Positions 20,161 through 64,000 of a stretch of DNA of 64,000 nt are shown piece by piece. A program made the translations under genes and the position numbers. Under the pieces are notes generated by a model that saw only the letters and a program-made list of their open reading frames with translations, searched no databases and was not told the origin of the DNA. This stretch comes from Kiritimatiellia bacterium (GTDB lineage: Bacteria; Verrucomicrobiota; Kiritimatiellia; UBA8416; JAWODU01), in contig JAWODU010000019.1 of assembly GCA_046483125.1 (NCBI GenBank), positions 1,911 to 65,910 of the forward strand. The letters are read 5' to 3'. How positions within the stretch are numbered: position 1 is the first letter of the stretch; each line of letters opens with the position of its first letter.

Positions 20161-20589
20161 ATGACATCCGTGTCGACTAAAGCACGTGCACCGATGGGAG
20201 TTGCCCTGGTTATTTGCGATCAGGTGATGACAGAGGCAGGCACAAACAAGAAGAGCCTGATCGGGATCTTCAACCAAATCTCTGCGAAGCAATTTCCATG
20301 TCGCCACCCTCGATTATGTATCTTTGTATCGTTAACCGGTGGTCACGGCAAAGGAAAAGCTAAGGTCCGGTGTGTCAACGAAAACAACGAAGACGAAGAA
20401 CTATTCGGCGCAGAGGGAGAAATCAACTTTCAGAGTCCCCTTCATGTAGTGGAGATAAACTTTGAGTTCAACAACGCACCTTTTCGAGCTCCCGGCAAAC
20501 ACCGAATTGACTTTTTATATGAGGGGGCCCCGGTATTGCAGAGGCCGTTTCGTGTAACGCAAACCAAAACCAGGGGGAACCAGACATGA
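20161..20589 (+). CDS. Hypothetical protein, first gene of a three-gene operon ending in a MazF-like toxin
   Basis: 142 aa with no recognisable family. The stop overlaps the next start (ATGA). Lies in lower-GC DNA. Confidence 0.4.
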   Translation: MTSVSTKARAPMGVALVICDQVMTEAGTNKKSLIGIFNQISAKQFPCRHPRLCIFVSLTGGHGKGKAKVRCVNENNEDEELFGAEGEINFQSPLHVVEINFEFNNAPFRAPGKHRIDFLYEGAPVLQRPFRVTQTKTRGNQT

Positions 20590-20810
20590 GTATCCTTGTC
20601 AAAGAAAAACCCGCTGTTCGTATCGAGGGTAGCCCACGGGATGCAGATCAAGTGTTTTTCGATGATGATTTCGCATCATCGTTCTTCGAATTCAAGATTT
20701 TTATGGCACAGGAACTCTCGGACGATGAGGTTATCAGATCTGCCGTGGAGTCCGGCGCTTACCAGTTCCTGGATTCACCAGAAGAAGACCTGTATTCCAG
20801 TACGGATTGA
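20586..20810 (+). CDS. Small acidic protein, putative antitoxin of the downstream MazF-like toxin
   Basis: 74 aa, D/E-rich. Overlaps both neighbours by 4 nt, the typical position of an antitoxin upstream of a PemK/MazF gene. Confidence 0.4.
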   Translation: MSILVKEKPAVRIEGSPRDADQVFFDDDFASSFFEFKIFMAQELSDDEVIRSAVESGAYQFLDSPEEDLYSSTD

Positions 20811-21160
20811 TAAGGATGAAGAAATGGGACGTCGTTCTTCTTTCATATCCATTCACTGACCTAACTGGTACTAAGGTGCGGCCCGCTGTAGTCCTGTCGC
20901 CTGACTCCGAAAATTCTGCGCAGGATGACGGGCTTTTCCTTTTGGTGACTTCAAACACCGCACGTATTTCAAGATATGATCTAGTGGTGGATTCAGGCCA
21001 TAAGGAATTCACTAAAACGGGCCTCAGAAAATCATCGGCCCTTAGAATTAACAAGCTGGTAACACTTAAGCAGACCCTGATCAGGAGGACGCTGGGCAAG
21101 ATTGGCCCAGAACTGCGGAAAGATATTACGTCTAGGCTTAGGGGCTACCTTGATCTCTAA
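20807..21160 (+). CDS. MazF/PemK-family type II toxin (endoribonuclease)
   Basis: 117 aa. WDVVLLSYPFTDLTGTKVRPAVVLS followed by LLVTSNT matches the PemK/MazF signature. Confidence 0.75.
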   Translation: MIRMKKWDVVLLSYPFTDLTGTKVRPAVVLSPDSENSAQDDGLFLLVTSNTARISRYDLVVDSGHKEFTKTGLRKSSALRINKLVTLKQTLIRRTLGKIGPELRKDITSRLRGYLDL

Positions 21161-21237
21161 GACAGACGTCTTACTTGAAGCGACAGCGGAAGTGGGCGGG
21201 CGGCGAGGACTACGACTAAGCCCAATTTCGTCGTTCG

Positions 21238-21492
21238 CTATCTGTAGACTTCTTTTCGATCTCCGATCGCGACCACCAAGACTACAAGCCTGTCATCATG
21301 GATTTCGTAAATCACGCGGTATGAACCGATGCGAATACGCCAAGCAGGCCGGCCCGAAAGCTTCTTGCAGCCGGGAGGGCGAGGATTCTCCGCAAGGGAT
21401 TCAATGGCTGCAATGATGCGTGCGTGGTCCTGACGGTTGATTTTCGCGAGTTGCCGTTGAGCCCGACGCAGAATATCGACTGCGTACGTCAC
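21238..21492 (-). CDS. RelE/ParE-family type II toxin
   Basis: 84 aa. LAENP..GCKKLSGRPAWRIRIGSYRVIYEIHDDRLVVLVVAIGDRKEVY is a canonical RelE/ParE core. Confidence 0.85.
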   Translation of the reverse strand: MTYAVDILRRAQRQLAKINRQDHARIIAAIESLAENPRPPGCKKLSGRPAWRIRIGSYRVIYEIHDDRLVVLVVAIGDRKEVYR

Positions 21493-21695
21493 GTATCATA
21501 TCCCTCTCGAATCTCTCGCACGGCTTGCTCGAAAGGGATGGCGTCCTGAGGGCCGGCTTTCGCCTTGTCGTAGGTTCTGATATCGTCGAGTTCCTCGAGA
21601 TCCTCGACAACGCGTTGCCACTCGGAAACAGGAAGGATGACAGATTTGGGGTTCTGTTTTTCGTCAACCACGTATTCTGGATGGACTTTAATCAT
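21489..21695 (-). CDS. Phd/YefM-type antitoxin paired with the RelE-like toxin
   Basis: 68 aa. Overlaps the toxin start by 4 nt and carries a GGAGGAAATAAT RBS. The acidic C-terminus is typical of these antitoxins. Confidence 0.65.
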   Translation of the reverse strand: MIKVHPEYVVDEKQNPKSVILPVSEWQRVVEDLEELDDIRTYDKAKAGPQDAIPFEQAVREIREGYDT

Positions 21696-21749
21696 ATTAT
21701 TTCCTCCAACTGACAGGCTTCTCGATCTTGCAGATCAATTCTTTTCGCT

Positions 21750-21942
21750 TCATGCGATTTGAAGCTCCGCCACCTTGCGGACACCAGGGATGTGCCCGCC
21801 TGTGAGGTCGTCATAAAGATCCTTAAGATTTTCCTGAAGGTTCCTCAAGGGTTTCTCCTTGAGTCATGTAATCGGGATAATCCTCCAGATATCCCAACCA
21901 CATATTTTCATATTGCCAGTGGACATATCGTATTGTTTTCAT
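21750..21942 (-). pseudogene. HicB-like (HicB_lk_antitox-type) antitoxin gene with an apparent +1 frameshift
   Basis: Frame A gives MKTIRYVHWQYENMWLGYLEDYPDYMTQGETLEEPSGKS*. Shifting one nucleotide at about 21835 continues the family-conserved ...TLEELQENLKDLYDDLTGGHIPGVRKVAELQIA*. This is consistent with an extra C in a CC run. Confidence 0.5.
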
Positions 21943-22009
21943 GTTATTAATATACACCTTGTTTGGATTTTTAGCAATCTTCTCTTTTGACACAACGCAA
22001 TCGGGGGAT

Positions 22010-50080: not shown

Positions 50081-50998
50081 CTACGCGTCGGGGAGGAAGC
50101 GCTTGAGCACCTGGAGGTCCTCTTCCTTCCTGTAGCTGAACGCCCACACGATGAGCTGGTTATTCTGCTTCTCGACCCTGCAGTGCACCTTCAGTTTGAA
50201 ACACCACCGGCTGATCTCGTCGCGGTGCGCTATCACATGCGGGGCCCTTCTCCGCCACAGTATCTCGCCGTTCTTCCCGGGCCTGAACACTATGCCGGGG
50301 AACCCGCGGAAGGTGTTGAGGTAGCCTGTTACCCACTCTTCCATTGATTTGTCCCCTTTAAGGAACCGGTCCGCGCAGGAGAAATGCCAGAGGTGGAACC
50401 GGCGCATCTTCCAGCGGAAAATCATGAGTTTCGAACCGATGTCGAACTTGGTGTTTTCGAGAAGAAAGTCATGGGGCACCTCAAAAGAAATGTCGTAAAG
50501 CTGCCACGGCACCAGCCCCGCCTCATTGTGCTTTATGAAGTCCGAAGAAAGCACCTTCATTATCTTAACGGGGCTTTCCCTGTCGCCAGGCATGAAATGC
50601 ACAAAGAAACAGCCCACCAGTGTTGATCGCGGGCAGAGATAAAAAGCAGTCACCAGGCTGTGTTCCACGGCGCTGAGCTCTTTTTTGTTACTTCGGGTGG
50701 GAAGGGTTTCGCGCATAATGTACTGCGTGGCGTGCCAGTCCGGAGGAAGTCCGGATATGCGTTTCGTGCGGCTGGCGCGCATCGTGAGCTTGCGCGTGGA
50801 TTTTTCGTAACGATCCAGAATCTGTTTGGGCGTGATTTTCCTGCCGGGCCTTATCCATTCCGCCTCCATGCGAACCGCGTACTCGTCTTCCAGCTCCAGG
50901 CGCGTAACTCCTTTTTTAAGGAACCTGTAGAGCGCGACTTCCCAGTTCTCCGGCACCAGAAAAGACACTCTGTCCCAGGAAATCCGGCGGGTATTCAT
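50081..50998 (-). CDS. Hypothetical soluble protein, last gene of the novel membrane-protein operon
   Basis: 305 aa with no TM helix and no recognisable family. Lies 15 nt downstream of the 985-aa membrane-protein gene. Confidence 0.5.
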   Translation of the reverse strand: MNTRRISWDRVSFLVPENWEVALYRFLKKGVTRLELEDEYAVRMEAEWIRPGRKITPKQILDRYEKSTRKLTMRASRTKRISGLPPDWHATQYIMRETLPTRSNKKELSAVEHSLVTAFYLCPRSTLVGCFFVHFMPGDRESPVKIMKVLSSDFIKHNEAGLVPWQLYDISFEVPHDFLLENTKFDIGSKLMIFRWKMRRFHLWHFSCADRFLKGDKSMEEWVTGYLNTFRGFPGIVFRPGKNGEILWRRRAPHVIAHRDEISRWCFKLKVHCRVEKQNNQLIVWAFSYRKEEDLQVLKRFLPDA

Positions 50999-51013: not shown

Positions 51014-53971
51014 TCAGAACCTGTTGAGGGTCACGCCGAACAGGCACATGAAAAGTTCACCCAGTATCAATCCGATAAACATGGCGCGAAACTGGGCGTA
51101 GGTCCGGTTGTCGCCGTACTTGCTGACCATCGTCTTGAACAGCCAGCCCAGCAGAATGGAAAACCAGTACTGCCACATCAGCGGGTTGACCCACATTATC
51201 AGGCCGATAGGGTGCGGAAGCCAGAAAACGCGCTGGCGCAAGAATATCAGCGCCCCCATCACGATAACGCCGGTAAGAAGCCAGTACTTGCCGCCGGCCA
51301 CGTCCGTGGGCTCACTCTGGGCCATGTTTTTGATCTCGCTGAATATGTCCGTAAGGGCGGTGCTGTAGAACCACCCATGCATTCCGTCGGCCCCGTTTTT
51401 GTATCCCAGAATAATGTGAGTGGCAATGGCAACGACGGTGGCCGCCAGAATGCCGAATGCCACCGCGGTGTGGAACCTGAGGCGTCCCATTTTCACGTTG
51501 TCCCTCACCTTGAGCGCGTTGGCCATGGCCGGGGCTATGAAAGCCTTTATGTCCCAGAAGAAAATATACAGGTAGCACACCAGCGGAGCCAGAAGCGGAG
51601 CGGCGGTCCAGGCCTTGTTCATGCCGACAACGTGCCTGATAAGGTGAAACGGTCCGAAGAAACACTGGAATCCCAGCAGGCCCCCCTCCGTCACCGCCCT
51701 GACCAGCCCGATCGTGATAACCAGCACTACCAGGTAAACGAAAATGGAAAAGTAGATGTTGGCGCCCAGCCCCCAGGTCAGCACTCCTACCAGCCCCGCG
51801 GAACAGAAAACAAAGAGAAAGGACGAAATCCTGAGTTCCGTGCGCTCCGGCTTCTCCAGTTCGGAGACGGCCCCGGGCCTGAACGCGCAGAAAAGGTACT
51901 GGCGGCATTTCCACAATATCACCGCGGCGAACGCGGTGAGGGCGCCTCCGCCTATGGCGGTACGGAAATTCAGGAGCGAAGTCATGCCCTTGGGAAAGGA
52001 ATTCAGGTTTTCCCCGTAGCCCATCCACACCAGCACGAGCGTCAGGACCATGAAAACAAGATGAAAGAACCAGAGGGAAAAGGATATCTTTGCCGGAATC
52101 AGGAAGGTGAGACCTACCAGCGTAAAAATTATCTGATGGTGGGCGTTAGGTAAGAGCCCCGCAAACGGGCTGTTCTGAATGTACGGCGTCCAGTCATACC
52201 TGAGAGCTATATCACCCGCTCCGGGAATAATCTGCTTTGTGGCCAGCAGGTTCCACCCCATAACCCCTATGGATATCGCCGCACCCGTCCAGAACATTCC
52301 GTTTCTGTAAAGCGCCGGTACCCGTCCGCCGTTCTCGTCGTAGGCGCCGCTGAGATAAGTGGGCAGTTCCGCCAGAGGATAGATCAATTTCTCGTTATAG
52401 GCCCACTGGCGGAATATCAGGACGTTAAACGTCATGAGCACCGTATAGGTAAGGAGAATCACCACCGCCCACTTCGCGAGAGGGCCGACCCACTTTTTCC
52501 ACGGCACGTTACCGGCCGCGAAAGTGCGCAGGTCGCCGTCGAAAGTCCTGAACGCGGCCATTTCCGATTCGATCTTTTCGACAAGAGCGGGGCAACCCCC
52601 GGGCACCGCCGTTTCGGACTCGGCCGAAAGTTCCTCAAGGTTTTCCATGGTCTCGGCAACGACCCCGGCGGTCGCCAGGGACGGTTTCACTTTGCGGTCC
52701 AGTCTGGAGTTAAGCGATTCAAGATTTTTCTTCTTCTTGTCTACCCACTTCTGTACTTTCTTTATTCTCCTGGTAAGCTCTTCGGCAGTTTCGTCCATTG
52801 CGTACCGTCTCTGCTCCCTGAGCAGTCTCAAGTGCTTTTCTTCGTCCCCTATCTCCTCGCGCAGGTTGTTTATTTTCGCTTCCAGGTCCGCCTGGCGCTC
52901 TTCAAGTTCGGGAAGACCTGCCAATGGTTCAAGCATTCCGGCGGCTTCGGCAATCAATGCCGCCGCCTCTTTGCCCGTCCGGGGCCCTGAACTGTCTTCA
53001 AGCATGCTGCGGGCCTTTTCCAGCAACTCGAGCGAGTCGGTGCCGCGGCTGAAACGGCGTACGCGGTACATGTACGAGTGAAGTCCCTCTCCGGGATCGT
53101 ATATGAACCCGGGCACAGCCCGCAGTTCGCCCGGAAGGCCCCTGCGGAATTGCTCCACGGTTTCAAAAGTGCCGGCCTTTGCCTCGGCCAGTTCCCCGGC
53201 GCGTTCGTCCTTTGTCTCCTGAAGTAACCGGATTTTTTCCGGAAAAGTATCCAGGACTTTCCCGCGGTTGTACTCGCCTTCGTATTCTTTCCAGGCTTCG
53301 CGCGCCCTCTCCAGCGCCTGCCTGATTACCAAAACCTGGTGTCTCAGCGGCTCCGCCCGAAGCGTTCTTTCTTTCTCGTCGGGAATCTTCTCGAGTTCGT
53401 GAAGTTTCGCGGTGACTTCTTCGAGATTTTCCGCCGCCGCCTGCACGTTCGCGGCGGCGCGGTATACCTTCTTTGCCCTGTCCCACTTGAGTTCAGCGTC
53501 CCTTGCCTCGATGGCGGCCTCGCGGATCCCGTCCTCGGCCACGAAGAAGTCGTCGTTGACGTAAGGTTCCACGTAAAGGTCCCAGCGGGACTGCATATTG
53601 TTCCAGTCCGGGTTGAATAGGCCCGAGGTAAGCGGCACGAGCTGTGAAGCCAGCCCGAAAGTGGAAACCCCGCCCGAAACAGCCCCCATAACAAAAACTA
53701 TGAGGAGTTCGGTTGGTGTGAACCTGCGTATGAAGCGGACAAATTTCAGCAGTGGGTTAATCAGCACTACTCCAACGGCAAGCAATATGTAAGGCAGGAC
53801 CGCAATCTGAGTAGAGGTGATGATGTGGCCCGGCACGTTCTCCTGATACACGGTGTACCAGGCAAAAAGACCCGCGAAGATCATGCCCAGCAGAAAGGAC
53901 CGCAGTGTTATGCGGTTCCTCTTCGGCTCCTCGCCCCATTTCCCGGATTTATCTTTCACACCATTACTCAT
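51014..53971 (-). CDS. Large polytopic membrane protein (985 aa) with a roughly 350-aa coiled-coil insertion, paralogue of 54113-56122
   Basis: More than 12 predicted TM helices. The E/K/R-rich heptad-like insert lies between TM helices. The C-terminus VSKYGDNRTYAQFRAMFIGLILGELFMCLFG is homologous to the C-terminus of the upstream paralogue. Confidence 0.6.
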   Translation of the reverse strand: MSNGVKDKSGKWGEEPKRNRITLRSFLLGMIFAGLFAWYTVYQENVPGHIITSTQIAVLPYILLAVGVVLINPLLKFVRFIRRFTPTELLIVFVMGAVSGGVSTFGLASQLVPLTSGLFNPDWNNMQSRWDLYVEPYVNDDFFVAEDGIREAAIEARDAELKWDRAKKVYRAAANVQAAAENLEEVTAKLHELEKIPDEKERTLRAEPLRHQVLVIRQALERAREAWKEYEGEYNRGKVLDTFPEKIRLLQETKDERAGELAEAKAGTFETVEQFRRGLPGELRAVPGFIYDPGEGLHSYMYRVRRFSRGTDSLELLEKARSMLEDSSGPRTGKEAAALIAEAAGMLEPLAGLPELEERQADLEAKINNLREEIGDEEKHLRLLREQRRYAMDETAEELTRRIKKVQKWVDKKKKNLESLNSRLDRKVKPSLATAGVVAETMENLEELSAESETAVPGGCPALVEKIESEMAAFRTFDGDLRTFAAGNVPWKKWVGPLAKWAVVILLTYTVLMTFNVLIFRQWAYNEKLIYPLAELPTYLSGAYDENGGRVPALYRNGMFWTGAAISIGVMGWNLLATKQIIPGAGDIALRYDWTPYIQNSPFAGLLPNAHHQIIFTLVGLTFLIPAKISFSLWFFHLVFMVLTLVLVWMGYGENLNSFPKGMTSLLNFRTAIGGGALTAFAAVILWKCRQYLFCAFRPGAVSELEKPERTELRISSFLFVFCSAGLVGVLTWGLGANIYFSIFVYLVVLVITIGLVRAVTEGGLLGFQCFFGPFHLIRHVVGMNKAWTAAPLLAPLVCYLYIFFWDIKAFIAPAMANALKVRDNVKMGRLRFHTAVAFGILAATVVAIATHIILGYKNGADGMHGWFYSTALTDIFSEIKNMAQSEPTDVAGGKYWLLTGVIVMGALIFLRQRVFWLPHPIGLIMWVNPLMWQYWFSILLGWLFKTMVSKYGDNRTYAQFRAMFIGLILGELFMCLFGVTLNRF

Positions 53972-53984
53972 TGCAGTATTCAGT

Positions 53985-54110
53985 ACACGGTACCGTTCCC
54001 CTGAACCGCCCAGCCTCCCTCTTGCTCCCCATCCTGTTGATCCTGTCTGAAATTCCCCTCTTCTCTCTTCCTCTCCTCCGTGCCTCCGTGGTTCAATTCT
54101 CCCCTCCGCC
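53985..54110. repeat. Intergenic repeat element (copy E) with two 9-bp tandem repeats (54031-54052) and a CT-rich tract
   Basis: atcctgttgatcctgtctgaaa and cttcctctcctccgtgcctccgt match the elements at 7976-8006, 15651-15676 and 14101-14130. Confidence 0.6.
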
Positions 54111-54112
54111 GC

Positions 54113-56122
54113 CTACCACGGCGTCGGACTCAACATCCTGGATATCACGTTAAAAGACAACGCTATCATGGACGTCAGTCCCAACCCGCATCCAAACCCC
54201 GCCATGATCGCCGTCATGTACTTGAGCCACATGTCCTTGTACTTGCGCTTGAAATGAAAACGCGCCACGGCCGCGCCCAGCATCGTGCAGAAAACCGCAC
54301 CCGGGTTGCTCTGCGCCAGCCCCCATACCGCCCCGAATATAAGCATTATGGGCATTCCCACGGCCGAAAGGATCGCAAAAAGCGACGAACCCGATATGAA
54401 ACCCCATAGCGCGTAGTCCAGGTTCATGGCCTCCAGGAACTGCGATCCTCCCTCCTGCGTGGCGGTAATCATAACCGCCCAGTTTCTCAGCTTAAGCGGC
54501 CACATCTTCTGCGTGTACGGATACGCCCCGGAAGGCACCTCCGCCATCCGCCAGAGAATCTCGGAGGTCAGGAAAGAGGCTATAAGTATAATGGGAACCG
54601 TAAGAATAAGTGTCTTGACCTGGCTCTTGATCTTGGTCCCGGTCAGTTCCAGAACACGAAAACCCACCGTTTCAGAGCCGAGGTTCTGTATGGGCATGGG
54701 CACGAACCATATGTCCGTCCCCTTGTATCCGGTGAGTATAATGGTCAACTCCTTCAGGTACGGTATGTTTACCGCCCGCCCGCATATGCCTTCCAGCTTG
54801 GCGGTGGCATACGAGATAAGAGGCGTGTACAGAAGGGCGTAGAACGTCATGATCTTCCACGGATAGCTGTTGCCTATCAGGAAGACGCCCAGCAACACCC
54901 AGGAAAAGGTACTGAACAGGTATATGAACAGGGCAACGAAAATTGAAAAATCACCCCTCGCGGCGTTGCCCATCACAAGCGTTCGCCAGGTTTCCCTGGC
55001 GCGCCGGCCGAAGCTCTTGGTGTGAGTCAGTTCCCTCGACCGGGGCCTCACGGCGTTTTTCACCGTTGTGGTCAGAAACACCACGAGCTGGCTGAATGTA
55101 ACCGCAAGGGTCAACCCGATACCGAAAGCGAGGTAAAAATCAATGTGGTTGGAAAACTGCGCGTTGACGAAACCCATCTCCGGACGCCAGGTCGTCAGTA
55201 TTCCGGCCTCGTAAAGCAGGGGATTCGCCACCCAGGTCATTACCAGCCCCACGAACGCCCCCACCACGCTCCAGAACGGCACTATCATGCCTACCATGAA
55301 AGCGGCAAAATCGAGTTTCAGGTTAAAGGGAACCGCGGGAAGCACGCGCCCGATCTGCTGTGTGTAATCTATGAAAATCATCGGGATGAGTTCTATGCGC
55401 TTGGGAAGCACCGCCTGGGTTATCATCGGAACGCAGATGTAAAGCAGGCCCCATATCATTCCCAGTACGCCCCCTATGGAGAAACACCGCCAGCGCCACG
55501 TCGTCTCTTCGCCCCTGTCGGTGGAAAGGGCCACTATTCCCGCGGCCCCCACGGGCGCGAACGGGAAAGGCAGTCTTTCCACGTCGTTTACCATCCGGTA
55601 CAGGACGTACCCGAGACCGTAGTTGTCTATCCGGGTTATGAAAATGCGGAACATGGTGATGCCGATAACCGGAAGCCAGGCCAGGCTGAAAAGCGTCCGT
55701 CCGGCGCTTTGTATATCGGCGGCACGCGGGAAAGCCCACGTCGGCAGATCAACCAGGCCCAGCCCCTGAATGTATTCGGACTGCGCGACGTACTGCTTGA
55801 ACAGGAAACCGGCGAAGGGATCGGCCAGCACCGCCCCGGCCATGAAATGAAGCGTATAGAGTTCCTGGCTCTTAAGCGTGGTGAACGAACGCTTGGCAAT
55901 CTCGGCGAAGAGAATCACAAGCACCCATTTCATGGCGTTTCCGATCTGGGCGTCGTTGCCTATCACGAGCACGAGGTAATCGGTGGCCGGGTTGACTATG
56001 AACCCGAGCAGGATGGCGCCCACTACCGTCTTCCAGCTGAAACCGTCCCGGAACTCCGTGATGTCCGGGGGTTTCATAATGTCCCGGTACTCGTTGAGTT
56101 CCTTGTCGTCAACCCATGACAT
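54113..56122 (-). CDS. Large polytopic membrane protein (669 aa), paralogue of 51014-53971
   Basis: About 14 predicted TM helices. N- and C-terminal blocks align with the 985-aa protein (FMAGAVLADPFAGFL versus MGAVSGGVSTFGL; KRKYKDMWLKYMTAIMAGFGCGLG versus VSKYGDNRTYAQFRAMFIGLILGE). Confidence 0.6.
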   Translation of the reverse strand: MSWVDDKELNEYRDIMKPPDITEFRDGFSWKTVVGAILLGFIVNPATDYLVLVIGNDAQIGNAMKWVLVILFAEIAKRSFTTLKSQELYTLHFMAGAVLADPFAGFLFKQYVAQSEYIQGLGLVDLPTWAFPRAADIQSAGRTLFSLAWLPVIGITMFRIFITRIDNYGLGYVLYRMVNDVERLPFPFAPVGAAGIVALSTDRGEETTWRWRCFSIGGVLGMIWGLLYICVPMITQAVLPKRIELIPMIFIDYTQQIGRVLPAVPFNLKLDFAAFMVGMIVPFWSVVGAFVGLVMTWVANPLLYEAGILTTWRPEMGFVNAQFSNHIDFYLAFGIGLTLAVTFSQLVVFLTTTVKNAVRPRSRELTHTKSFGRRARETWRTLVMGNAARGDFSIFVALFIYLFSTFSWVLLGVFLIGNSYPWKIMTFYALLYTPLISYATAKLEGICGRAVNIPYLKELTIILTGYKGTDIWFVPMPIQNLGSETVGFRVLELTGTKIKSQVKTLILTVPIILIASFLTSEILWRMAEVPSGAYPYTQKMWPLKLRNWAVMITATQEGGSQFLEAMNLDYALWGFISGSSLFAILSAVGMPIMLIFGAVWGLAQSNPGAVFCTMLGAAVARFHFKRKYKDMWLKYMTAIMAGFGCGLGLTSMIALSFNVISRMLSPTPW

Positions 56123-56126
56123 GGTC

Positions 56127-59100
56127 TTATTCCTCTTTTCCGGAGAAAAGCTTTTCGCTTTCCTTAACGTACCAGCTGTGCTGTGTGGGGTCTATATTCC
56201 GCCACCGCATCAGGGCTTTTCTCATCCTCTGCAGGAACGGTCTGTTCGTGGTGGCCCAGTTGGTGTCCTGGCCGGAAACACGGTAAATGTCCATATACAG
56301 CCTGTAGCTTTCCACCGTTTCGTCGTAGCGGGCGTTGAATATGACCTTCTGGGTCACGCCAAGGTCAAAAGGCGCCAGCGCTACCGAGTATTCCAGGGTG
56401 TAGGCAGGACGTCCTGAATCATCCTTACTTTTATGTATTCTTTTACATGAAGCTATAAGATCGCCTATGGACTGCTCGGTAAAGTCGGAAAAATACTCGT
56501 AAAGGTAATACACGACGCCCGCGGCCAGCTCCAGCTGGTAAATAAAGGGAAACGCAACGTGCATTTTCTCTCCGTCGTTGTCGGGGAGCGACCACTTCCG
56601 GCGTCCCGAAGGCACCGCCGTGCGCGTCGCGACGTAAGCGGGGTACACCGTCGAAAGCAGAACCAGTCCCACGGTAAACAGAATGGCCCACACCACGATA
56701 AGCGAGGAGAAGTTTATGTTTATTCCCTGAATAAGACCCGCGGACTTCACCGCTATCGCCCCGATCTGGCCTATAAGGTACCCGCCTATGGCGCCGATGA
56801 AACTGTACACAAGGGCCTCGGCCAGGAAAAACGTGAAAATGTGCAGGGGGTTCAGGCCTATGGCGTTGTAAACGGCTATCTCCGAACGCCGCTCATACAC
56901 GGTCCCCAGCATCGTGTTGAAAATAATCAGCCCCGCTATCAGAAGGGGTATTACAAGTCTTGATACCCCGCCTATGGTGGTCCTGTAACTGCTCCCCACG
57001 TAGTAAACCCCCTGGTCCGTGTCCTGCTCGGCGTCTTCCCCGAGCCTGAACGGTTCCCGGCTCCCCAAGAAGAACTTCGCCCCGGTTATGCCCAGCAGAA
57101 AGTCCGCGGCCTCCCACAGCGCGGTGTCGCTACGTTCCTCTTTTCTTGTCCGGAGCCTTATGGAAACCGTGTAGGGGTCCGCGTCCATGTCTTCGGCAAG
57201 TTCCGCGGGCAGGAGTACCAGCGAAGCCATATCTATTGTGGACATCCCAACGTAGTCGGTATCGGATTCTTCAACCCCCTGGGATTTCTGCTGTGCCTCG
57301 GCTGCCTTTTCCTGAAACGGAACCAGGGGAAGCTTCGGATCCAGGTCCCGCAGAGCGCGGTACCTGCTGTCGTCAAGGATACCCGCCACCTTCAGGTCCC
57401 GGCCAAGGAACCGGACGTACGTTTCCCCGGCGTCATCCGGATGGAGCCCCAGCGCCTCGGCCATGGCCGCGGTTATTATGATTTCCTCCGCGCACGGCCC
57501 CGAAAAGAACTCACCGCCCAGAAGAGGAAACGGGCCCAGGAAATACCTGTCTTCCTGAGGCAGGCCCACTACCGCTTTCACGTCGACATTCTGCGCTTCT
57601 TCGCCCGCGAGATCGAGCCTCCAAGTAATGCGCGCATCCTTGGCGCCCCTCGGCGGCAGTTTGATCCTGCGGACAAGTACCTGGGCTTTCCCGGTAAAGA
57701 GCGTGTTAAAAACTTCCGCGGTGGCCTCGTCCATGGATTTACCGCCGGGAGCGCGGTAAAAGAGTCCCGTATAGGGGCTGTTTTCGGACTTCGATATGAG
57801 GGTCGGCTTCGCCTTCCTGGATACGCTGGAAAATGCCAGCATGGTGAATACCACCAGCACGATGGTTCCCGTGGTCAGCGAGGTGCGCACCCTGCGGCGC
57901 TTCATGTTGTTTACGCCGATAATCATCGCCGTCTGTCCCACGGTTCCGTAAGCCACGTCGAATTCCATACTGCCGGAGGTCTTGAACAGAAGTTCCATTT
58001 CGGTCTGGAACCGCTTCTTCAGAACCCAGGCTATAAACAATCCCATGGCTCCCAGAACGAAGGCTATGAATATGGCCTCTGCGTTCATTGCTATGGCAAA
58101 CGCCGGGTGGATAAAGCGGAACCCGACGTATGTGACCAGAAACAGGAGTGTAAATGCCCCCAGTTCGTGCTGAAGCTTGGTGAAATTGAAAATCAGCTTC
58201 TGAAGAAAATAACAGAACGGCACCATCATCGCCATGTACAGCATGATCGCCTTGAGCATGTCCGCGTTCATGCCCCTTATCTGGGAGTACGCCTTCACTT
58301 CCGCGCCCAGCGCCCCGTAAAGCGCGAGAAGGTATCCGGTGTGGTCCCGCTGGGCTTTTTCGGCTTCCATTCGATTGAGGGCGGATTTTCCCTTTTCAAG
58401 AAAAGTATCCAGGAGTTCGTTGGCGACGCCCTTCATTTCGTTCTTGCGGTAACGGTTGAGTTTGTCCATGTCCCGCGCCGCGACGGCGAAGAAATCCGCT
58501 CCAAGCTCTTCGGCGTTTTTATATCCGTAACCCCCCGGCTCCTTTTCCTTGGGATTGAGCGCGCACCTTTTATTTCCGGTAAGCAGGAGCAGGCGGTCTT
58601 CATGGAATCCCTCCTGCTTTTTCTTCCACAGGTAAACCGCCACCGGCCCCGTGGAAACATGGCTTTTCGCGGGCGAAAGTGAAATCGCCCCGTGCACCCC
58701 GTATTCCTCCGGCTCCGACTGCATCTGGGCGCTCTTGGGCCACCATTGATCAACTTTAACCTGGGAGCTTCCCGCCAGGGTCGGATCCTTGCGGGTATAA
58801 ACCGGGAACTCCCTGCATGGGAACATGGGCAGGGTGGTACTCGGCCCGGGCACTATGTTGCTGGTAATTTCTTCGGATTCCTGGACCCGTCCCTTGTCGA
58901 TGGTGTGGGTGACTTTTCTGAAACCTTCGCCCATGCGGTATGCCGTGGAACAAAGCTGGCCGTCATTGAGGCCGTAAATGTACGTGGAGCCGCTTATGTC
59001 GGTAATAGCCGGGTAGCAGTTGACGACGTCACCGTCAACAAGCGGAGGAACAAGCGTGTTCCCGCCGGGATAAAGGGTCACCATACAGCCGGGCACCGGA

Positions 59101-61511
59101 AGATCCGGACTGCCCTGCGAAGAGAACTCGTCGATGGCGTAGGTGCGGACCAGCGTTGACCACAGCCAGTACTGGTGCTTTCGTTCGACCTTTCCGATGG
59201 TGTCCGGAGAAGCCAGTACGGGCTCGTCTATCAGCCGGGGAAGGTAGCGGCTCAGCCATTCCATGTTCCGTTCCGCCGTGTCTGAATCCAGTCTTTCGGC
59301 CGTGTCCGCCGGGCTGAATGCGGCCCCCTCGTTCACAAACACTCCTTTAAGGGCCATCGCCGGTGTCCGGCCCGAATGGAACACCGCCGAGGGTGATTCC
59401 CATCCCGGGAAAAAACGTTTCTGGCTCTTGCCCGCGGCTCCGCCCAGGGTTTCCAGGAACGGACTTTTCTCTGTTCCCGTTTCTTCGTCTATCTCGCCGG
59501 CGACACGCAGGCACAGGTTCCCCAGCCCCCTTTCCCAGTCGGTGGTAACGTTGGGGTCCAGGGAACAGAAACCCGCCTGCTCCGCGCGCCAGTTCATGTC
59601 CAGGTTTATAACCAGGGCCACCTGCCGCATCTGGAGGGCTTCGCGCAGATTGTCATTCGATGTATCAAGCGACAGCACCTCTTCTTTTTTCCGCTCGAAC
59701 TCCCCGAACCTCTCGACCAGCGTGTCCCGGTAATCCTTCAGAATGTTCCTGTGGATATCGCTGAGCGCGATTTCACGGTAGCGCACCTTGCTTCGTCCGA
59801 TGCCCACGTCAATTTTGTTGAAAAGCCTCAATACTTTTGCCAGATCATCTTTTCTTTTTATGGCTTTTTTCCGCAGATCTTCCAGGCGCTCATCATCCAT
59901 ATCTTCCACGCGGGCTAAATCAAGAAGGCGCAGTTTCGACATGTTGAGTTCACGCTTGGCCTTTGTCTGGAGCTTGTCCTTGACCGGAAGCCTTTTCCCC
60001 GTGCTGGCGTCCATCTCGCTGCGCCATTCCTCCAGGAGTTTTTCGTCGTCGAACACCGTCTTCGCCCGCCTGAGAAGGATGAATATTTTCTCGGCGGGCC
60101 ATTGCTTCATTTCCTCGACGTGACGCCGGTCCTTTTTGAGCATCCGGATCGCCTCGCTGTCCGTGGAAAACATGGCCAGAAATCCGCCGGCTTCTTTGGA
60201 CAGTTCCTCGACTACACGGTCTATTGCGGCATAAACGTCTTCGGCGTCGAACTCGGAAAGATCAAGCTTCCAGTCTATTTCCGGCACCGGCTGAAGTTCG
60301 ATCTCCGAGGTGTCTTTTTCCTGATCCTCCAGCCGCTCAAGTTCGTTTCTTCTTTCCTCGAGCAGTTTCTCGTGCTCGGCTTCGCGTTTTTCCTGCTGGA
60401 TCTCGTCAAGTCTGCCCATGATTTCCACGGCGGCGTAAAGGTCCGAAGCCGGTATGTCCACCGGTTCGAGCTTGAGCAGGCTGTACTTATCGTGAAAAAG
60501 CCTGGCTATCCGCATTTCCGTGCCGATGGAGTCTCTGAATTTGGCGATATCTTTCATACCGGCCAGAAGGTGCCATGCCAGGACGCGCTCTCCCCGGAAG
60601 TTCTGAGTATGGGCGTTCACGGCGCAGAGCAGGACCGTCCGGGCCGGCGGCTCCCGGCGAAGTTTTTCGAGAATCTCCAGCAGAAGGCAGAGGTTTCCCG
60701 CCCCCTGGGCGCCCCAGGACCTGTCGGGCACCGCGGAGGCGGCGTCCAGCGGGGCGGTAATCACCACCACTTCCCGTCCGAGGTCAGGGTCGTTTCCCGG
60801 TATCAATACCCAGGGGCTTTCGAGCACGCTGTTGGTCCAGATCGATGGAGAAGAATGGACCCGGCATTCGAGTTCGCCGCCGCCTTCCCCGCACAGTTCC
60901 CGGAGCACAAGCCCGTCCGAATGCGTAAGGAAAAACCGGGGAAATCCGACTTCGGTATTGTAAATCTTGGACAGGGAATCTTTGTACTGGTACCTGCCCT
61001 CGCCCAGCCCCATGAAGATAACACCCGCCGGATTAAACCTCAGAAGGTCCAGCCACGCGCCGCCGCAGTCGTAATCCATAAGGAAAAAAGCCCGGTCCAG
61101 TTCAATTCCGTTCACCGCCTTCAGGTCCCGGTACCCGCCCTTACGAAGGTCCACGAGACGGGTTGTTACGGTATCGCGAGGCAGGTTCCCGGGCCGCATG
61201 AGAGTGGGATGCATTACCGACAGGTTCACAGGGAGGGCGCCTTCGGCTTCAAGCCGCCCGCTCCCCGGCTCAAAGACCGGGGCTGTGAACCGGATTACCC
61301 CGTTGGTGAACCCGGAATCCGCGAAAACGCCCGCGACTTCCCGCTGAAGAGCGAGATTCCCCTTCATTCCCGGAGCGCGGGGCTGTGCGGAAATGCTCTC
61401 CATGTCGGCGGAGAACCCCGCAAAAGCCGCGGAGACGCCCTGCAGAAGTGCAATGGAACACAACCATGAAAAACAGCGGACCACCGCTGATCCTGCCCGG
61501 CCTGAATGCAC
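56127..61511 (-). CDS. Giant (1794 aa) MacB/FtsX-type permease fusion with a roughly 1000-aa N-terminal PA/M28-like ectodomain (catalytic residues not conserved) and a coiled-coil region
   Basis: N-terminal signal anchor. PA-like (GIELDRAFFLMDYDCGGAWLDLLRFNPAGVIFMG) and M28-like (VVVITAPLDAAS...GAQGAGN) segments lack the His/Asp/Glu zinc ligands. The C-terminal half holds TM clusters and the FtsX hallmark ERRSEIAVYNAIGL followed by three TM helices, with a MacB-like periplasmic domain between TM helices. Confidence 0.65.
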   Translation of the reverse strand: MHSGRAGSAVVRCFSWLCSIALLQGVSAAFAGFSADMESISAQPRAPGMKGNLALQREVAGVFADSGFTNGVIRFTAPVFEPGSGRLEAEGALPVNLSVMHPTLMRPGNLPRDTVTTRLVDLRKGGYRDLKAVNGIELDRAFFLMDYDCGGAWLDLLRFNPAGVIFMGLGEGRYQYKDSLSKIYNTEVGFPRFFLTHSDGLVLRELCGEGGGELECRVHSSPSIWTNSVLESPWVLIPGNDPDLGREVVVITAPLDAASAVPDRSWGAQGAGNLCLLLEILEKLRREPPARTVLLCAVNAHTQNFRGERVLAWHLLAGMKDIAKFRDSIGTEMRIARLFHDKYSLLKLEPVDIPASDLYAAVEIMGRLDEIQQEKREAEHEKLLEERRNELERLEDQEKDTSEIELQPVPEIDWKLDLSEFDAEDVYAAIDRVVEELSKEAGGFLAMFSTDSEAIRMLKKDRRHVEEMKQWPAEKIFILLRRAKTVFDDEKLLEEWRSEMDASTGKRLPVKDKLQTKAKRELNMSKLRLLDLARVEDMDDERLEDLRKKAIKRKDDLAKVLRLFNKIDVGIGRSKVRYREIALSDIHRNILKDYRDTLVERFGEFERKKEEVLSLDTSNDNLREALQMRQVALVINLDMNWRAEQAGFCSLDPNVTTDWERGLGNLCLRVAGEIDEETGTEKSPFLETLGGAAGKSQKRFFPGWESPSAVFHSGRTPAMALKGVFVNEGAAFSPADTAERLDSDTAERNMEWLSRYLPRLIDEPVLASPDTIGKVERKHQYWLWSTLVRTYAIDEFSSQGSPDLPVPGCMVTLYPGGNTLVPPLVDGDVVNCYPAITDISGSTYIYGLNDGQLCSTAYRMGEGFRKVTHTIDKGRVQESEEITSNIVPGPSTTLPMFPCREFPVYTRKDPTLAGSSQVKVDQWWPKSAQMQSEPEEYGVHGAISLSPAKSHVSTGPVAVYLWKKKQEGFHEDRLLLLTGNKRCALNPKEKEPGGYGYKNAEELGADFFAVAARDMDKLNRYRKNEMKGVANELLDTFLEKGKSALNRMEAEKAQRDHTGYLLALYGALGAEVKAYSQIRGMNADMLKAIMLYMAMMVPFCYFLQKLIFNFTKLQHELGAFTLLFLVTYVGFRFIHPAFAIAMNAEAIFIAFVLGAMGLFIAWVLKKRFQTEMELLFKTSGSMEFDVAYGTVGQTAMIIGVNNMKRRRVRTSLTTGTIVLVVFTMLAFSSVSRKAKPTLISKSENSPYTGLFYRAPGGKSMDEATAEVFNTLFTGKAQVLVRRIKLPPRGAKDARITWRLDLAGEEAQNVDVKAVVGLPQEDRYFLGPFPLLGGEFFSGPCAEEIIITAAMAEALGLHPDDAGETYVRFLGRDLKVAGILDDSRYRALRDLDPKLPLVPFQEKAAEAQQKSQGVEESDTDYVGMSTIDMASLVLLPAELAEDMDADPYTVSIRLRTRKEERSDTALWEAADFLLGITGAKFFLGSREPFRLGEDAEQDTDQGVYYVGSSYRTTIGGVSRLVIPLLIAGLIIFNTMLGTVYERRSEIAVYNAIGLNPLHIFTFFLAEALVYSFIGAIGGYLIGQIGAIAVKSAGLIQGININFSSLIVVWAILFTVGLVLLSTVYPAYVATRTAVPSGRRKWSLPDNDGEKMHVAFPFIYQLELAAGVVYYLYEYFSDFTEQSIGDLIASCKRIHKSKDDSGRPAYTLEYSVALAPFDLGVTQKVIFNARYDETVESYRLYMDIYRVSGQDTNWATTNRPFLQRMRKALMRWRNIDPTQHSWYVKESEKLFSGKEE

Positions 61512-61553: not shown

Positions 61554-61943
61554 TTATCCGGCAGCCGTTTCTTCCCGTTTCAGCATGACGCTCACCAGAT
61601 TGCGTTTCATGAGTATTTTTATGAAGGCCACGACCCCGAGTTCCGATTCCCGGTAGCTCATGCCGAACTGCTTCTGAAAAGCGCGGATTATCTCAAGAAC
61701 GGTTCGTTCGTGATCTATGTTATCCACTACAAAACTACCGAATTCATCCAGCTCAAACCGCTTGTTTATGACCCGCGGCCGGAATCTTTCGAGAAAATGG
61801 TTCCGCCTGGTTTCCCTGATTTTAACACTGGACAAGCCTGAATCGGCCTTCTCGATTTTGACATTGTCCGAAATCACGGGCACCCCGGCCAGGGCGGCGC
61901 GGCGATCGATGCTGTTTCTGTGCCTTTTCCAGAATAAAGACAT
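61554..61943 (-). CDS. PqqD-family (RiPP recognition element-like) small protein, first gene of the minus-strand operon
   Basis: 129 aa. The C-terminal segment LDEFGSFVVDNIDHERTVLEIIRAFQKQFGMSYRESELGVVAFIKILMKRNLV fits the PqqD/RRE winged-helix pattern. Ends 42 nt upstream of the giant permease gene. Confidence 0.5.
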   Translation of the reverse strand: MSLFWKRHRNSIDRRAALAGVPVISDNVKIEKADSGLSSVKIRETRRNHFLERFRPRVINKRFELDEFGSFVVDNIDHERTVLEIIRAFQKQFGMSYRESELGVVAFIKILMKRNLVSVMLKREETAAG

Positions 61944-62083
61944 TCTTTGAGTTCCCCCGGCCGCGGCTCCGGCGGTTTTTTCTTGCCGCCCTGTTGCCGG
62001 GGCCCTATTAGAAACTTGCCCGGTTGAGTAATTCCATGATATATGAAGTTTTCCTGGGTCAGGTCAAGACGGATTCGAGACTA

Positions 62084-62842
62084 ATGGAAACAGCGGCAAC
62101 AAAAGACATAGTAATTCGCGCCCTTGGCGTAAAGCGCTACTACGGTGAGGGGGAAAACCTCACCAAAGCCCTCGACGGCGTAAGTCTGAACATCTACAGG
62201 GGTGAATATCTTTCGATTATGGGGCCTTCGGGATCCGGTAAAAGCACGCTTTTCAACATGATCGGCGGCATAGATTCGCCCACCGAAGGCATGGTGTTCA
62301 TTGACGAAATCGACGTGGCACAGCTCGATTCCTTTGAACTTGCCTGGATGCGCTGTCACAAAATCGGCTACATATTCCAGACCTACAATATACTTCCGGT
62401 GCTGACAGCGCTGGAAAACGTTACTTTGCCCATGACGTTCGCGGGGCTTTCACCGGACGAAGCCAGGGAAAAAGGGCGTGAAATCCTGCGGATCGTCGGT
62501 CTCGGCGACAGGGTCTTTCACCGCCCCTTCGAGCTTTCGGGCGGTCAACAGCAGAGGGTAGCCGTGGCAAGGGCCATAGCCAACGATCCGGTCATCGTTC
62601 TTGCCGACGAACCGACCGCCAACCTGGACGTGGACACCGGCCAGGAAATCATTGATCTCCTGGCCAAACTCAAGGAAGAGCGGGGAATGACCGTGATTTC
62701 GGCGACTCACGACATGAAGATGCTCGATATCTCCGACCGGATACTCTGGATAAGAGACGGACGCGTCCAGAGGCTGGAGGACCGCAGGAATCTGGACATC
62801 AACGTGGGCGGCATCGGGGGCAGATCAAAGCAGGCAGTCTGA
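62084..62842 (+). CDS. ABC transporter ATP-binding protein (MacB/LolD-type)
   Basis: Walker A GPSGSGKST, signature LSGGQQQRV and Walker B LADEPT. Likely start at the ATG at 62084 (METAATKDIVIRALGV); the track ORF starts at 62024. Confidence 0.85.
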   Translation: METAATKDIVIRALGVKRYYGEGENLTKALDGVSLNIYRGEYLSIMGPSGSGKSTLFNMIGGIDSPTEGMVFIDEIDVAQLDSFELAWMRCHKIGYIFQTYNILPVLTALENVTLPMTFAGLSPDEAREKGREILRIVGLGDRVFHRPFELSGGQQQRVAVARAIANDPVIVLADEPTANLDVDTGQEIIDLLAKLKEERGMTVISATHDMKMLDISDRILWIRDGRVQRLEDRRNLDINVGGIGGRSKQAV

Positions 62843-62855
62843 AAGGAAAACCATC

Positions 62856-63557
62856 TTGGCCGACACAGCAACAGCCAGTCGCGCCGCCGCTCCCGCCGGC
62901 GGCCTCAAGGGAACCATTCCCGAACAGTCCCCTCTGCCGTGGAACATGATCTGCCGGGTGGCGTCCGCCGGAATGAAGCGCCGCATGACGCGCTCCGTTA
63001 TGAGCATATCCATTGTCGTTCTGGCAATCGCCTTCGTGGCCTACATGCTGATTATAGACAACATTACCGTGTCCCTCGTAGCCGTGCGCGACAGTCGTCT
63101 TGCCGTACTGCTCCAGGAGAAAGGGGTCGAGGTATACGGCCGCACCGGAACGGATGAGATGACGGTTCTGCTGATAAGTCTGGCACTGCTTACCTGTACC
63201 GTGGGGATAGTAAACTCCATGCTGATGTCGGTAACCGAGCGGGTCCGTGAAATAGGAACGCTCAAATGCCTCGGCGCCAGGGACCTGTTCATCGTGAAAA
63301 CCTATTTTGTGGAAGCCACACTGCAGGGCATATTCGGCTCCATCTGCGGGATGGTTCTAGGGGTGCTGGTCGCGGTACTCGTCTCCATGACCGATTACCC
63401 CGGTTACGTTCTGCCCAACCTGCCGTACGGGACCATAGGGCGCTCGCTCCTGCTGGCCTTTCTCGCGGGTCTTGTTATATCGGTGATAGCGGCCATAGCC
63501 CCGGCCTATGCCGCCGCCCGCAAACAGCCCGTTGACGCGCTCAGGGTTGAAGAATGA
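62856..63557 (+). CDS. Minimal FtsX-family ABC permease (233 aa, 4 TM, no large periplasmic domain)
   Basis: TERVREIGTLKCLGA FtsX hallmark, with one TM helix before it and three after it. Confidence 0.7.
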   Translation: MADTATASRAAAPAGGLKGTIPEQSPLPWNMICRVASAGMKRRMTRSVMSISIVVLAIAFVAYMLIIDNITVSLVAVRDSRLAVLLQEKGVEVYGRTGTDEMTVLLISLALLTCTVGIVNSMLMSVTERVREIGTLKCLGARDLFIVKTYFVEATLQGIFGSICGMVLGVLVAVLVSMTDYPGYVLPNLPYGTIGRSLLLAFLAGLVISVIAAIAPAYAAARKQPVDALRVEE

Positions 63558-64000
63558 CAGACAACGCTCTCATATCGGTACGCGACGTCGCCAAGGTTTA
63601 CCGCATGGGCGACGAGGAAGTGCACGCCCTGCGGAACATTACCGCCGACATAGCCCGCGGCGAATACGTATCCATCATGGGGCCTTCCGGCTCGGGAAAA
63701 TCCACTCTCTTCAACATGATCGGCGGTCTGGACACTCCAAGCGGCGGTGAAGTTGTCGTGGACGGATGGAAACTGGCGGACCTCAACTCCGACCAGCTCG
63801 CGTGGTTCAGGAACCGCAACATCGGCTTCATTTTTCAGAACTTCAACCTGGTGCCCACAATGACCGCCGCCGAAAACGTGGCCATTGCCAGGATGTTTAC
63901 CGGTGTTTCCGCTCACGAGGCCAACGAAGCCGCCGGCCGGGTCCTGGAAAAAGTCGGGCTGGGGCACCGTCTCCATCACCTTCCCGGGGAAGTGTCCGGA
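63554..64000 (+). CDS. Second ABC transporter ATP-binding protein (MacB-type), 3' partial at window end
   Basis: Its ATG overlaps the permease stop (ATGA). Walker A GPSGSGKST. The frame is open to the end of the window. Confidence 0.85.
   Translation, partial: MTDNALISVRDVAKVYRMGDEEVHALRNITADIARGEYVSIMGPSGSGKSTLFNMIGGLDTPSGGEVVVDGWKLADLNSDQLAWFRNRNIGFIFQNFNLVPTMTAAENVAIARMFTGVSAHEANEAAGRVLEKVGLGHRLHHLPGEVSG

Follow-up and report, generated by a model that had tools for sequence, protein, structure and literature searches.

Two unlike, probably OPT-related membrane proteins, one of them with a large helical insert, in a conserved ABC/FtsX gene cassette of Kiritimatiellia and related bacteria

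Results and discussion

A pair of membrane proteins in a conserved gene cassette

The window analysed here is a stretch of 64,000 nt from a Kiritimatiellia metagenome-assembled contig. Two adjacent genes on its minus strand code for membrane proteins of 985 and 669 aa. The longer one is a DUF6785/DUF6784 family protein interrupted by a predicted helical insert, the shorter one has the predicted fold of the oligopeptide (OPT/YSL) transporters. An earlier note on this DNA had drawn attention to the pair but missed its context: it lies at the centre of a conserved set of eight genes, a cassette that includes an ATP-binding cassette (ABC)/FtsX system. With slightly better than even confidence we propose that the two OPT-fold proteins provide a translocation path, probably as a heterodimer, to which the ABC/FtsX machine is coupled and in which the insert acts as contact or gate. 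Fold and family labels of the two proteins are already in the databases; the proteins described here are variants of a known fold, and what is undescribed is their conserved genetic context. Literature searches found no paper on the cassette, on the combination of OPT, FtsX and PqqD, or on a bacterial OPT structure.

The existence of two giant polytopic membrane proteins, as claimed in the earlier note, is borne out by open reading frames (ORFs), hydropathy and AlphaFold models alike, and both are almost wholly helical by hydropathy and in the models. The NCBI call of the longer protein comprises 981 aa, that is, 4 codons less than the ORF used here. The pair and its parts are:

51014-53971, minus strand: 985-aa DUF6785/DUF6784 membrane protein, long form (ORF list; NCBI MFO7870022, 'DUF6785 family protein')
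53528-53914, minus strand: N-terminal membrane block of the 985-aa protein, aa ~20-148, comprising helices 23-44, 53-77 and 86-117, the last of them Gly-rich and discontinuous, and the first part of the loop that follows
52514-53527, minus strand: helical insert of ~335 aa, aa ~149-486, probably periplasmic (short-form DUF6785 alignment; tblastn block spacing)
53084-53149, minus strand: conserved non-helical segment in the insert, aa 275-296, FRRGLPgelRAvPGFiydPGE (16 long-form proteins)
51392-52549, minus strand: C-terminal part of the DUF6785 match, aa 475-860, Pfam model positions 129-498
51038-51283, minus strand: DUF6784 domain, aa 897-978, with the last membrane helices, a K/R-rich loop and then the conserved C-terminal tail
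53972-54112, minus strand: 141-bp intergenic spacer, polypurine-rich on the coding strand (sequence composition)
54113-56122, minus strand: 669-aa OPT/YSL-fold membrane protein (ORF list; NCBI MFO7870023, 'peptide transporter')

Family and fold of the two proteins

The Pfam OPT model matches the 669-aa protein with 20.3 bits (E 2.5e-4), below the cut-off of 25.8, in a colinear alignment of aa 176-654 to model positions 129-619 of 623. The AlphaFold model (predicted local distance difference test, pLDDT, 70; predicted template modelling score, pTM, 0.72) was compared with the PDB by Foldseek. The top matches were the two entries of the barley transporter Yellow Stripe 1 (HvYS1), 7wst and 7wsr (E 1.5e-9 and 3.1e-9, probability 1.0, TM-score 0.56-0.63 over the full length, ~686 columns), and the next PDB match followed at E 0.02. 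An HMM search of PDB sequences with the family profile gave no HvYS1 match. Among the candidates scored, 449 homologues were found at E <= 0.001, the named ones being PVC bacteria (Planctomycetes, Verrucomicrobia, Chlamydiae). Many orthologues carry a precomputed PF03169 match, and one (P0127) combines a weak OPT match with the NCBI name 'OPT/YSL family transporter'. Membership of the 669-aa protein in the OPT superfamily is firm. Judged from its model it clearly has the OPT fold, and we regard it as a divergent member of the superfamily, not as a certified member of PF03169.

Pfam DUF6785 matches the 985-aa protein with 237.2 bits (cut-off 25), the insert dividing this match into two stretches, and DUF6784 matches it with 67 bits (cut-off 26.4). 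By these matches, which pass both thresholds, it is clearly assigned to DUF6785/DUF6784, a group of uncharacterised bacterial and archaeal membrane proteins; its domain order, DUF6785 then DUF6784, is that of 53 out of 53 short forms tested. An exhaustive HMMER search with the C-terminal 500 residues recovered 2623 DUF6785 relatives in the representative library, and there are 16 long-form homologues, at 39-50% identity. Within this long-form family, V98, S99, G101 and G106 of the N-terminal block are invariant, helix 86-117 being broken at the conserved stretch G-x-V-S-G-G-x-S-T-F-G, and so are K946, Y952, Y958 and L982-N983-R984 in the DUF6784 region and tail. The AlphaFold model (pLDDT 71.5) again has HvYS1 as its top Foldseek match in the PDB (7wsr_A, E 0.016, probability 1.0, TM-score 0.24/0.35), with the membrane part modelled at low confidence. 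DUF6785 is mentioned in no paper that our literature searches covered, and the family is without described function.

No known transporter family signature had been recognised in the earlier note. This does not hold in view of the DUF6785 and DUF6784 matches and the sub-threshold OPT match of the neighbour. The two genes do not code for a pair of uncharacterised DUF families either: this description fits the 985-aa protein, whereas the other is an OPT/YSL-fold protein. Assignment of the latter to a well-studied transporter family is clear as far as the fold is concerned, but it falls into a bacterial branch without established function, for which the literature searches yielded no experimental data on proton-coupled uptake of oligopeptides, glutathione or metal chelates. 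Neither protein matched RND or MMPL models in Pfam or NCBIfam; NCBIfam as a whole had nothing specific for the pair, and the PADLOC defence models had nothing at all.

Probable ancient homology rather than recent duplication

The earlier note had called the proteins paralogues with shared N- and C-terminal signature blocks. At the level of pairwise and close-profile comparison this is not the case: BLASTP of one against the other gives a best E of 1.8, and hhalign of the close-family profiles (16 and 26 sequences) a probability of 0.2%. A relationship appears with a broad DUF6785 profile, made of 53 short-form proteins taken from the exhaustive HMMER search. Against the 669-aa family it yields E = 2.9e-5, a probability of 74% and a score of 50.9, compared with 16-19 when either alignment is reversed and 21-29 in twenty block-shuffles. 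The significant part covers the N-terminal 200 columns, in which the N-terminal block of the 985-aa protein is aligned with aa 25-146 of the 669-aa family; under a relaxed setting the alignment extends colinearly over 570 columns. It also brings together a shared E-(K/R)-L-x-(F/Y)-P motif, ERLPFPF in the 669-aa protein (aa 182-188, 6 residues past the start of the Pfam OPT alignment) and EKLIYPL in the 985-aa protein (aa 527-533, consensus E-K-L-x-Y-P-L). Since the broad profile matches the 669-aa family well beyond the reversed and shuffled controls, the two proteins are probably ancient homologues within the OPT superfamily, the membership of the 985-aa protein being probable, and not products of a recent duplication.

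Large size, a polytopic nature, a location side by side and an insert in just one of them would also be expected of recent paralogues from an unrecognised transporter family which differ only by the insert, with a repeat element in the spacer supplying a promoter. We consider this very improbable, however, in view of the missing pairwise and close-profile similarity, the described families to which both belong, and the properties of the spacer.

The spacer was indeed noted with its correct length of 141 bp, but it consists of a polypurine tract (purine content of 74% on the coding, that is minus, strand; one 8-bp unit occurs twice) and not a repeat element. Repeat searches and blastn detected no direct or inverted repeats, no tandem repeat element and no second copy in the window. 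Its other matches in the window are stretches of only 10-20 nt, the best (17 and 20 nt) with a pyrimidine-rich tract at 15648-15677. Rfam gave no match, and there was neither a terminator-like hairpin nor a sigma-70-like promoter in a scan that does not cover PVC promoters. At orthologous loci the gap from the OPT-like to the DUF6785 gene is mostly 2-80 nt. A promoter of their own for the downstream genes, as had been suggested, is therefore unsupported.

The helical insert

The earlier note had placed a long insert at roughly the right position of the 985-aa protein. Aa ~149-486 have no counterpart in ordinary DUF6785 proteins, so that the insert is defined relative to this family and not, as had been assumed, relative to the 669-aa neighbour. 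Its junctions in the alignment lie between '...PYVNDDFFVAEDG' and 'GNVPWKKW...', where it replaces a loop of ~15-60 residues. Typical DUF6785 members have 640-730 aa, and in most of the HMMER relatives the C-terminal block starts at residue 140-230, whereas in ~30 representative clusters it begins near residue 470-480 of a protein of 920-1075 aa. This long form was found almost only in PVC genomes, in addition to metagenome-assembled genomes (MAGs) labelled Paceibacterota and FCPU426.

E, R, K, A and L are abundant in the insert. AlphaFold predicts eight helices of 21-61 residues each with pLDDT 80-94 (149-193, 199-228, 236-277, 297-326, 330-350, 353-389, 393-453 and 457-477). Hydrophobic residues recur with a period of 3.35-3.6 over the whole insert and 3.55 in helix 393-453, which was reached by none of 500 shuffles; several individual helices are without significant hydrophobic periodicity. 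The prediction is thus one of long amphipathic, heptad-like helices, compatible with a bundle as well as with true coiled-coil pairing. At aa 278-296 the model has a coil between two long helices, and here lies the non-helical segment given above. F275, R276, G278, L279, P280, P287 and G288, followed by R303, R306 and G310, are invariant or near-invariant in the 16 long-form proteins. Because of this conserved central FRRGLP...PGF segment, the insert is not a featureless spacer. In the PDB the family profile met only coiled coils at chance level (E 0.001-1), with weak matches to the MacA and EmrA hairpins among generic ones.

The loop after the discontinuous second helix appears as an insertion hot spot of DUF6785 proteins in general (proteins P0171 and P0281; loci L099, L100, L102, L106, L109 and L110). 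Loop classes of ~33-60, 82, 140-155, 290-460 and 600 residues occur, and the inserts of ~600 residues have no sequence relationship to that of the window protein. In other DUF6785 proteins with an insert, Pfam scans revealed no domain that would indicate the membrane side.

Membrane topology

HvYS1 is the only solved OPT/YSL structure, and it is a dimer. It has inverted repeats and a hairpin of transmembrane helix (TM) 1 and H1 with the loop at the outer substrate site; TM2 is discontinuous, Gly-rich and substrate-binding; the TM6-TM7 linker is invisible; and the C-terminal strand, through which the protein homodimerises, is disulfide-bonded to the H4-TM4 loop on the outside (PMC9691689). The topology of the window proteins was deduced from this description and from loop charges, not computed from coordinates. 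A simple alternating-helix count had given contradictory results and was replaced by this deduction.

The only topology consistent with the HvYS1 statements would have the N-terminus inside and the TM2-TM3 loop outside. It also fits the K/R-rich segments, which would then be inside: the N-terminus and the second loop in the 985-aa family, and the basic loops 359-393 and 620-633 in the 669-aa family. By analogy, we take helix 86-117 of the 985-aa protein to be the counterpart of the substrate-binding TM2. The insert is quite likely to lie in the periplasm and, as it directly follows this helix, it would be carried along by the 'core', the mobile domain of an elevator-type fold.

Further points of likeness to the OPT/YSL family are a size of ~600-700 aa for the shorter protein, the discontinuous Gly-rich second helix and a basic linker, long and flexible, halfway along the chain. 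At the position of the dimer-forming strand of HvYS1, a short conserved tail is present here, directly after the last helix: strictly conserved M-L-x-P-T-x-W in the 669-aa family and L-N-R in the 985-aa family. Thus, the 669-aa protein resembles OPT/YSL proteins (PF03169; TC 2.A.67; HvYS1, PDB 7WSR/7WST) in overall fold, but there is no significant sequence match between HvYS1 and the window proteins, the Pfam OPT score of the 669-aa protein is sub-threshold, and HvYS1 has nothing like the ~335-aa helical domain in the TM2-TM3 loop of the 985-aa protein. Characterised OPT proteins are stand-alone proton symporters encoded by a single gene, whereas here a pair of unlike members occurs in bacteria, of the PVC group, and within an ABC/FtsX cassette. 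To our knowledge, nearly all OPT transporters described so far come from fungi and plants, and we know of no partner proteins.

Conservation of the cassette

The cassette comprises two ABC ATPases, a small FtsX permease, a PqqD-like protein, the 1794-aa FtsX protein, the OPT-like protein, the DUF6785 protein and a 305-aa protein. Apart from the pair, its members in the window are:

50081-50998, minus strand: 305-aa soluble protein, family not matched (position at the cassette end)
56127-61511, minus strand: giant 1794-aa FtsX-domain protein (ORF list; Pfam FtsX)
61554-61943, minus strand: 129-aa PqqD-like protein (Pfam PqqD)
62024-62842, plus strand: ABC ATPase 1 of the LolD/MacB type, running divergently to the operon on the minus strand (Pfam ABC_tran E 4e-32; NCBIfam LolD/MacB-like, 215 bits)
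62856-63557, plus strand: small FtsX-type permease, 233 aa (Pfam FtsX, 76.5 bits)
63554-64000, plus strand: ABC ATPase 2, LolD/MacB type, cut by the window end (Walker A motif GPSGSGKST in the translation)

The minus-strand genes are tightly spaced, with 4 nt between the stop of the giant FtsX gene and the 669-aa gene and 15 nt between the 985-aa and the 305-aa genes. The stop of the small FtsX gene lies 4 nt beyond the start of ABC ATPase 2; since the latter is truncated at the window end, the cassette is not fully contained in the window.

Four distant loci (L002, L003/L004, L005) have the same set in the same gene order, consisting of ABC_tran, PqqD, a 1643-1837-aa FtsX protein, a 666-669-aa OPT-like protein and a 917-1003-aa DUF6785/6784 protein, to which a small FtsX gene, a second ABC_tran gene (in the cassettes of L002, L003 and L005) and sometimes the 305-aa protein are added. 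A wider survey with one genome per species yielded 80 loci, in which gene presence was judged by tblastn with the window proteins; the denominators 63, 49 and 53 used below are the loci with enough flanking sequence. The OPT-like gene is directly upstream of the DUF6785 gene in 53 out of 63 loci and nearby in 3 more. The giant FtsX gene was found in 47 and the PqqD gene in 37 of 49 loci. A small FtsX gene directly downstream of the DUF6785 gene is present in 34 of 53 loci, and the 305-aa gene in 24 of the 53 with downstream room. Nearly all hosts are Lentisphaerae, Kiritimatiellia or MAGs labelled Verrucomicrobiota, Planctomycetota or 'PVC group'; two MAGs bear other labels (Candidatus Paceibacterota, L020; candidate division FCPU426, L034), and one locus (L076) belongs to a cultured species, Oligosphaera ethanolica DSM 24202. 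Starting from short-form DUF6785 proteins, a metagenome scan showed that the same cassette also exists with an insert-less DUF6785; the members remain together even at loci whose DUF6785 protein has no more than 24-27% identity to the seed.

From the adjacency of the two genes the earlier note had suggested that their products form a heteromeric membrane complex. That they work together is reasonable, considering how often the OPT-like gene is directly upstream and the precedent of the HvYS1 dimer; the heteromer itself we infer. Adjacency could alternatively mean mere co-regulation in an operon for nutrient scavenging. In that case each protein would be an independent proton-coupled importer, as homodimer or monomer, as has been proposed for HvYS1; a polymer would be captured or processed by the ABC/FtsX system together with the giant periplasmic protein, and different products would be imported by the two permeases. 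OPT proteins are secondary transporters in no need of an ATPase (PMC9691689), DUF6785 genes stand alone in many loci, near glycoside-hydrolase-like genes, peptidases and sugar-type regulators, the long form too occurs without an OPT-like neighbour, and some genomes carry three cassettes, which is typical of substrate-specific uptake loci. Yet the order giant FtsX, OPT-like, DUF6785 is kept down to 24-27% identity and across phyla, which goes beyond usual co-regulation, short overlaps or gaps suggest translational coupling, and neither family was seen to take the place of the other in the cassette. We judge independent import, the main rival reading, to be unlikely, if by no means negligible.

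Up to three long-form DUF6785 loci were seen per genome (L021, L022 and L082 in one MAG; L017, L048 and L066 in another); the genomes with three cassettes are ETNP2_MAG_64 and UBA8228. Multiple loci per genome look more like substrate-specific paralogous systems than like one housekeeping machine.

The giant FtsX protein and the other cassette members

The giant protein consists of a signal or anchor sequence, an N-terminal region of ~1050 aa which is probably periplasmic, a block of 4 TMs, a MacB-type loop, FtsX TM2-4 and a C-terminal domain of ~170 aa. Pfam FtsX matches aa 1521-1631 with 50.7 bits, and MacB, LolC and YtrF are among its PDB sequence matches. The N-terminal region of the protein in the window has no Pfam match. 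In 5 of 35 orthologues the N-terminal part weakly matches M28 (Peptidase_M28), Nicastrin or PA; the M28 zinc-ligand positions are, by eye, not conserved. These matches suggest an inactive, substrate-binding module of M28/nicastrin type. PADLOC's 'CARF_m8--CARF_LolE_TM' model matches aa ~1500-1794 (56127-57011, minus strand) with 141 bits, and 'CARF_m8--CARF_Beta-galactosidase_LolE_TM', with a profile length of 1791 against the 1794 aa of the protein, matches as well; the giant protein matched no PADLOC models other than CARF_m8 ones of this LolE_TM kind. The LolE_TM scores are far above the generic Pfam FtsX score, the match running via the region around the FtsX domain (aa ~1500-1710). The C-terminal tail may be a CARF-like ligand-binding domain. 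A variable region of the giant protein (aa ~350-480) showed no clear correlation with the presence of the DUF6785 insert.

The 129-aa protein matches Pfam PqqD with 25.7 bits, above the cut-off of 23.4, and weakly NCBIfam lasso_PqqD and PQQ_PqqD. The PqqD domain is a peptide-binding module in the pathways of ribosomally synthesised and post-translationally modified peptides (RiPPs). Beside the PqqD-like gene (61554-61943), which is the conserved first gene of the operon, we saw no precursor peptide, no radical-SAM gene and no other RiPP enzyme. For the 305-aa protein there was no Pfam, NCBIfam or PDB match; it is 51% identical to the protein at the same position in L005. No hydrolase domain and no outer-membrane channel gene was found in the cassette. 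An apparent ABC-ATPase fusion, P0214, was set aside because it resembles a gene-call artefact.

FtsX-type systems typically act through periplasmic coiled-coil partners, by mechanotransmission. The cassette has in common with the MacB, LolCDE and FtsEX systems the LolD/MacB-type ATPases and FtsX-domain permeases, together with a long helical domain encoded in the same operon. It differs in that MacA and EnvC are separate coiled-coil adaptors, whereas the domain of the window protein interrupts a polytopic OPT-like chain, and in that the ~1050-aa N-terminal region of the giant permease is unlike any described FtsX protein.

The likeness raises the question of a role outside transport, in which the pair would be membrane-anchored partners of an FtsEX-like mechanotransmission machine, with the insert as an adaptor of the EnvC/PcsB/RipC type, moved by ATP hydrolysis and controlling an envelope process, for instance wall or outer-membrane remodelling. 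The MacB/LolC/FtsX character of the FtsX and ABC components, the binding of known FtsX partners via periplasmic coiled coils, the MacA and EmrA hairpins among the weak profile matches and the conserved centre of the insert are all in line with it. A mere anchor would not need the highly conserved OPT-type membrane core with its Gly-rich discontinuous helix, though, and the cassette also exists with an insert-less DUF6785, lacks a hydrolase domain, and the coiled-coil PDB matches remain at chance level. Such a role is, in our view, improbable.

A working model for the pair

We return to transport by a coupled pair, the reading proposed at the outset. As cassette members the 669-aa and 985-aa genes would be co-transcribed, and the two OPT-fold proteins would form a membrane translocation path for an oligomeric substrate, probably as a heterodimer via their scaffold domains. 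HvYS1 dimerises via its C-terminal strand, and both proteins end in conserved tails. The loop after the Gly-rich second membrane helix of the DUF6785 protein would have been expanded into a helical bundle of ~335 residues which projects into the periplasm from the mobile core domain, with the FRRGLP...PGF loop at its centre. There, the ABC/FtsX machine would act on the same substrate or on the transporter, and the insert would be a contact or gating element at which the core of the transporter meets those parts of this machine that lie in the periplasm. A peptide is the best guess for the substrate, because of the OPT fold, the PqqD domain and the weak M28, nicastrin and PA matches in the giant protein; a glycan fragment would be less likely.

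A more specific version, which we put forward as no more than a long shot, is a heterodimeric elevator-type transporter in which a MacB/FtsX ABC engine grips the periplasmic helical domain, placed on the mobile core beside the substrate-binding helix, and moves it. This would be an ATP-driven hybrid, a secondary-transporter fold mechanically coupled to a type VII ABC machine, for the PVC-specific uptake or export of peptides or other oligomers at the envelope.

Several observations weigh against the coupled pair. The same cassette with a short-loop DUF6785 is found in nine loci (L092, L093, L096, L101, L103, L112, L115, L131 and L132); the insert is thus not needed for membership, which weakens the idea of a coupling element. 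Long-form DUF6785 genes occur without an OPT-like neighbour, either alone (L007, L008, L026, L060 and L066) or directly after the giant FtsX gene (L036 and L053), so the heteromer is not obligatory. Standalone DUF6785 genes adjoin glycoside-hydrolase-like genes as often as peptidases, and OPT proteins need no ATPase. The 669-aa protein is below the Pfam OPT threshold. For the 985-aa protein the evidence for an OPT assignment is weak: the membrane part of its model has a pLDDT of 35-60 over large stretches, and a profile search of PDB sequences gave no match of its family to HvYS1. Finally, the membrane side of the insert is a deduction by analogy.

The system is unusual in its conserved pair of unlike, probably OPT-fold proteins, in the large helical domain grafted next to the presumed substrate site, and in the fixed link to ABC/FtsX components, PqqD and a giant permease. 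It gives DUF6785/DUF6784 a probable fold-level assignment and a functional context that can be tested. The cassette has a wide distribution among Lentisphaerae, Kiritimatiellia and related PVC bacteria, and its presence in the cultured O. ethanolica makes it experimentally accessible. If true, the coupling to an ABC system would be a new way to drive or gate an elevator-type transporter.

DUF6785 genes outside the cassette and window composition

Short-form DUF6785 genes outside the cassette were seen directly downstream of genes for very large glycoside-hydrolase-like proteins (L088, L098, L140, L147 and L116), which comprise GH2, PcRGLX-like, GH123 and DUF4838 proteins and a combination of GH42-like with 3-keto-disaccharide hydrolase. 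Other neighbours of cassette-free short forms are regulators of the GntR/periplasmic-binding type, N-methyl-motif proteins and peptidases. The neighbourhood of these genes is one of nutrient acquisition, and the glycoside-hydrolase-like neighbours hint that some DUF6785 members may import glycan fragments rather than peptides.

With regard to the composition of the window, G+C falls to 0.48 at positions 20001-22000, compared with 0.55-0.60 elsewhere. The GC skew is negative over the first 20 kb and near zero from there to ~34 kb.

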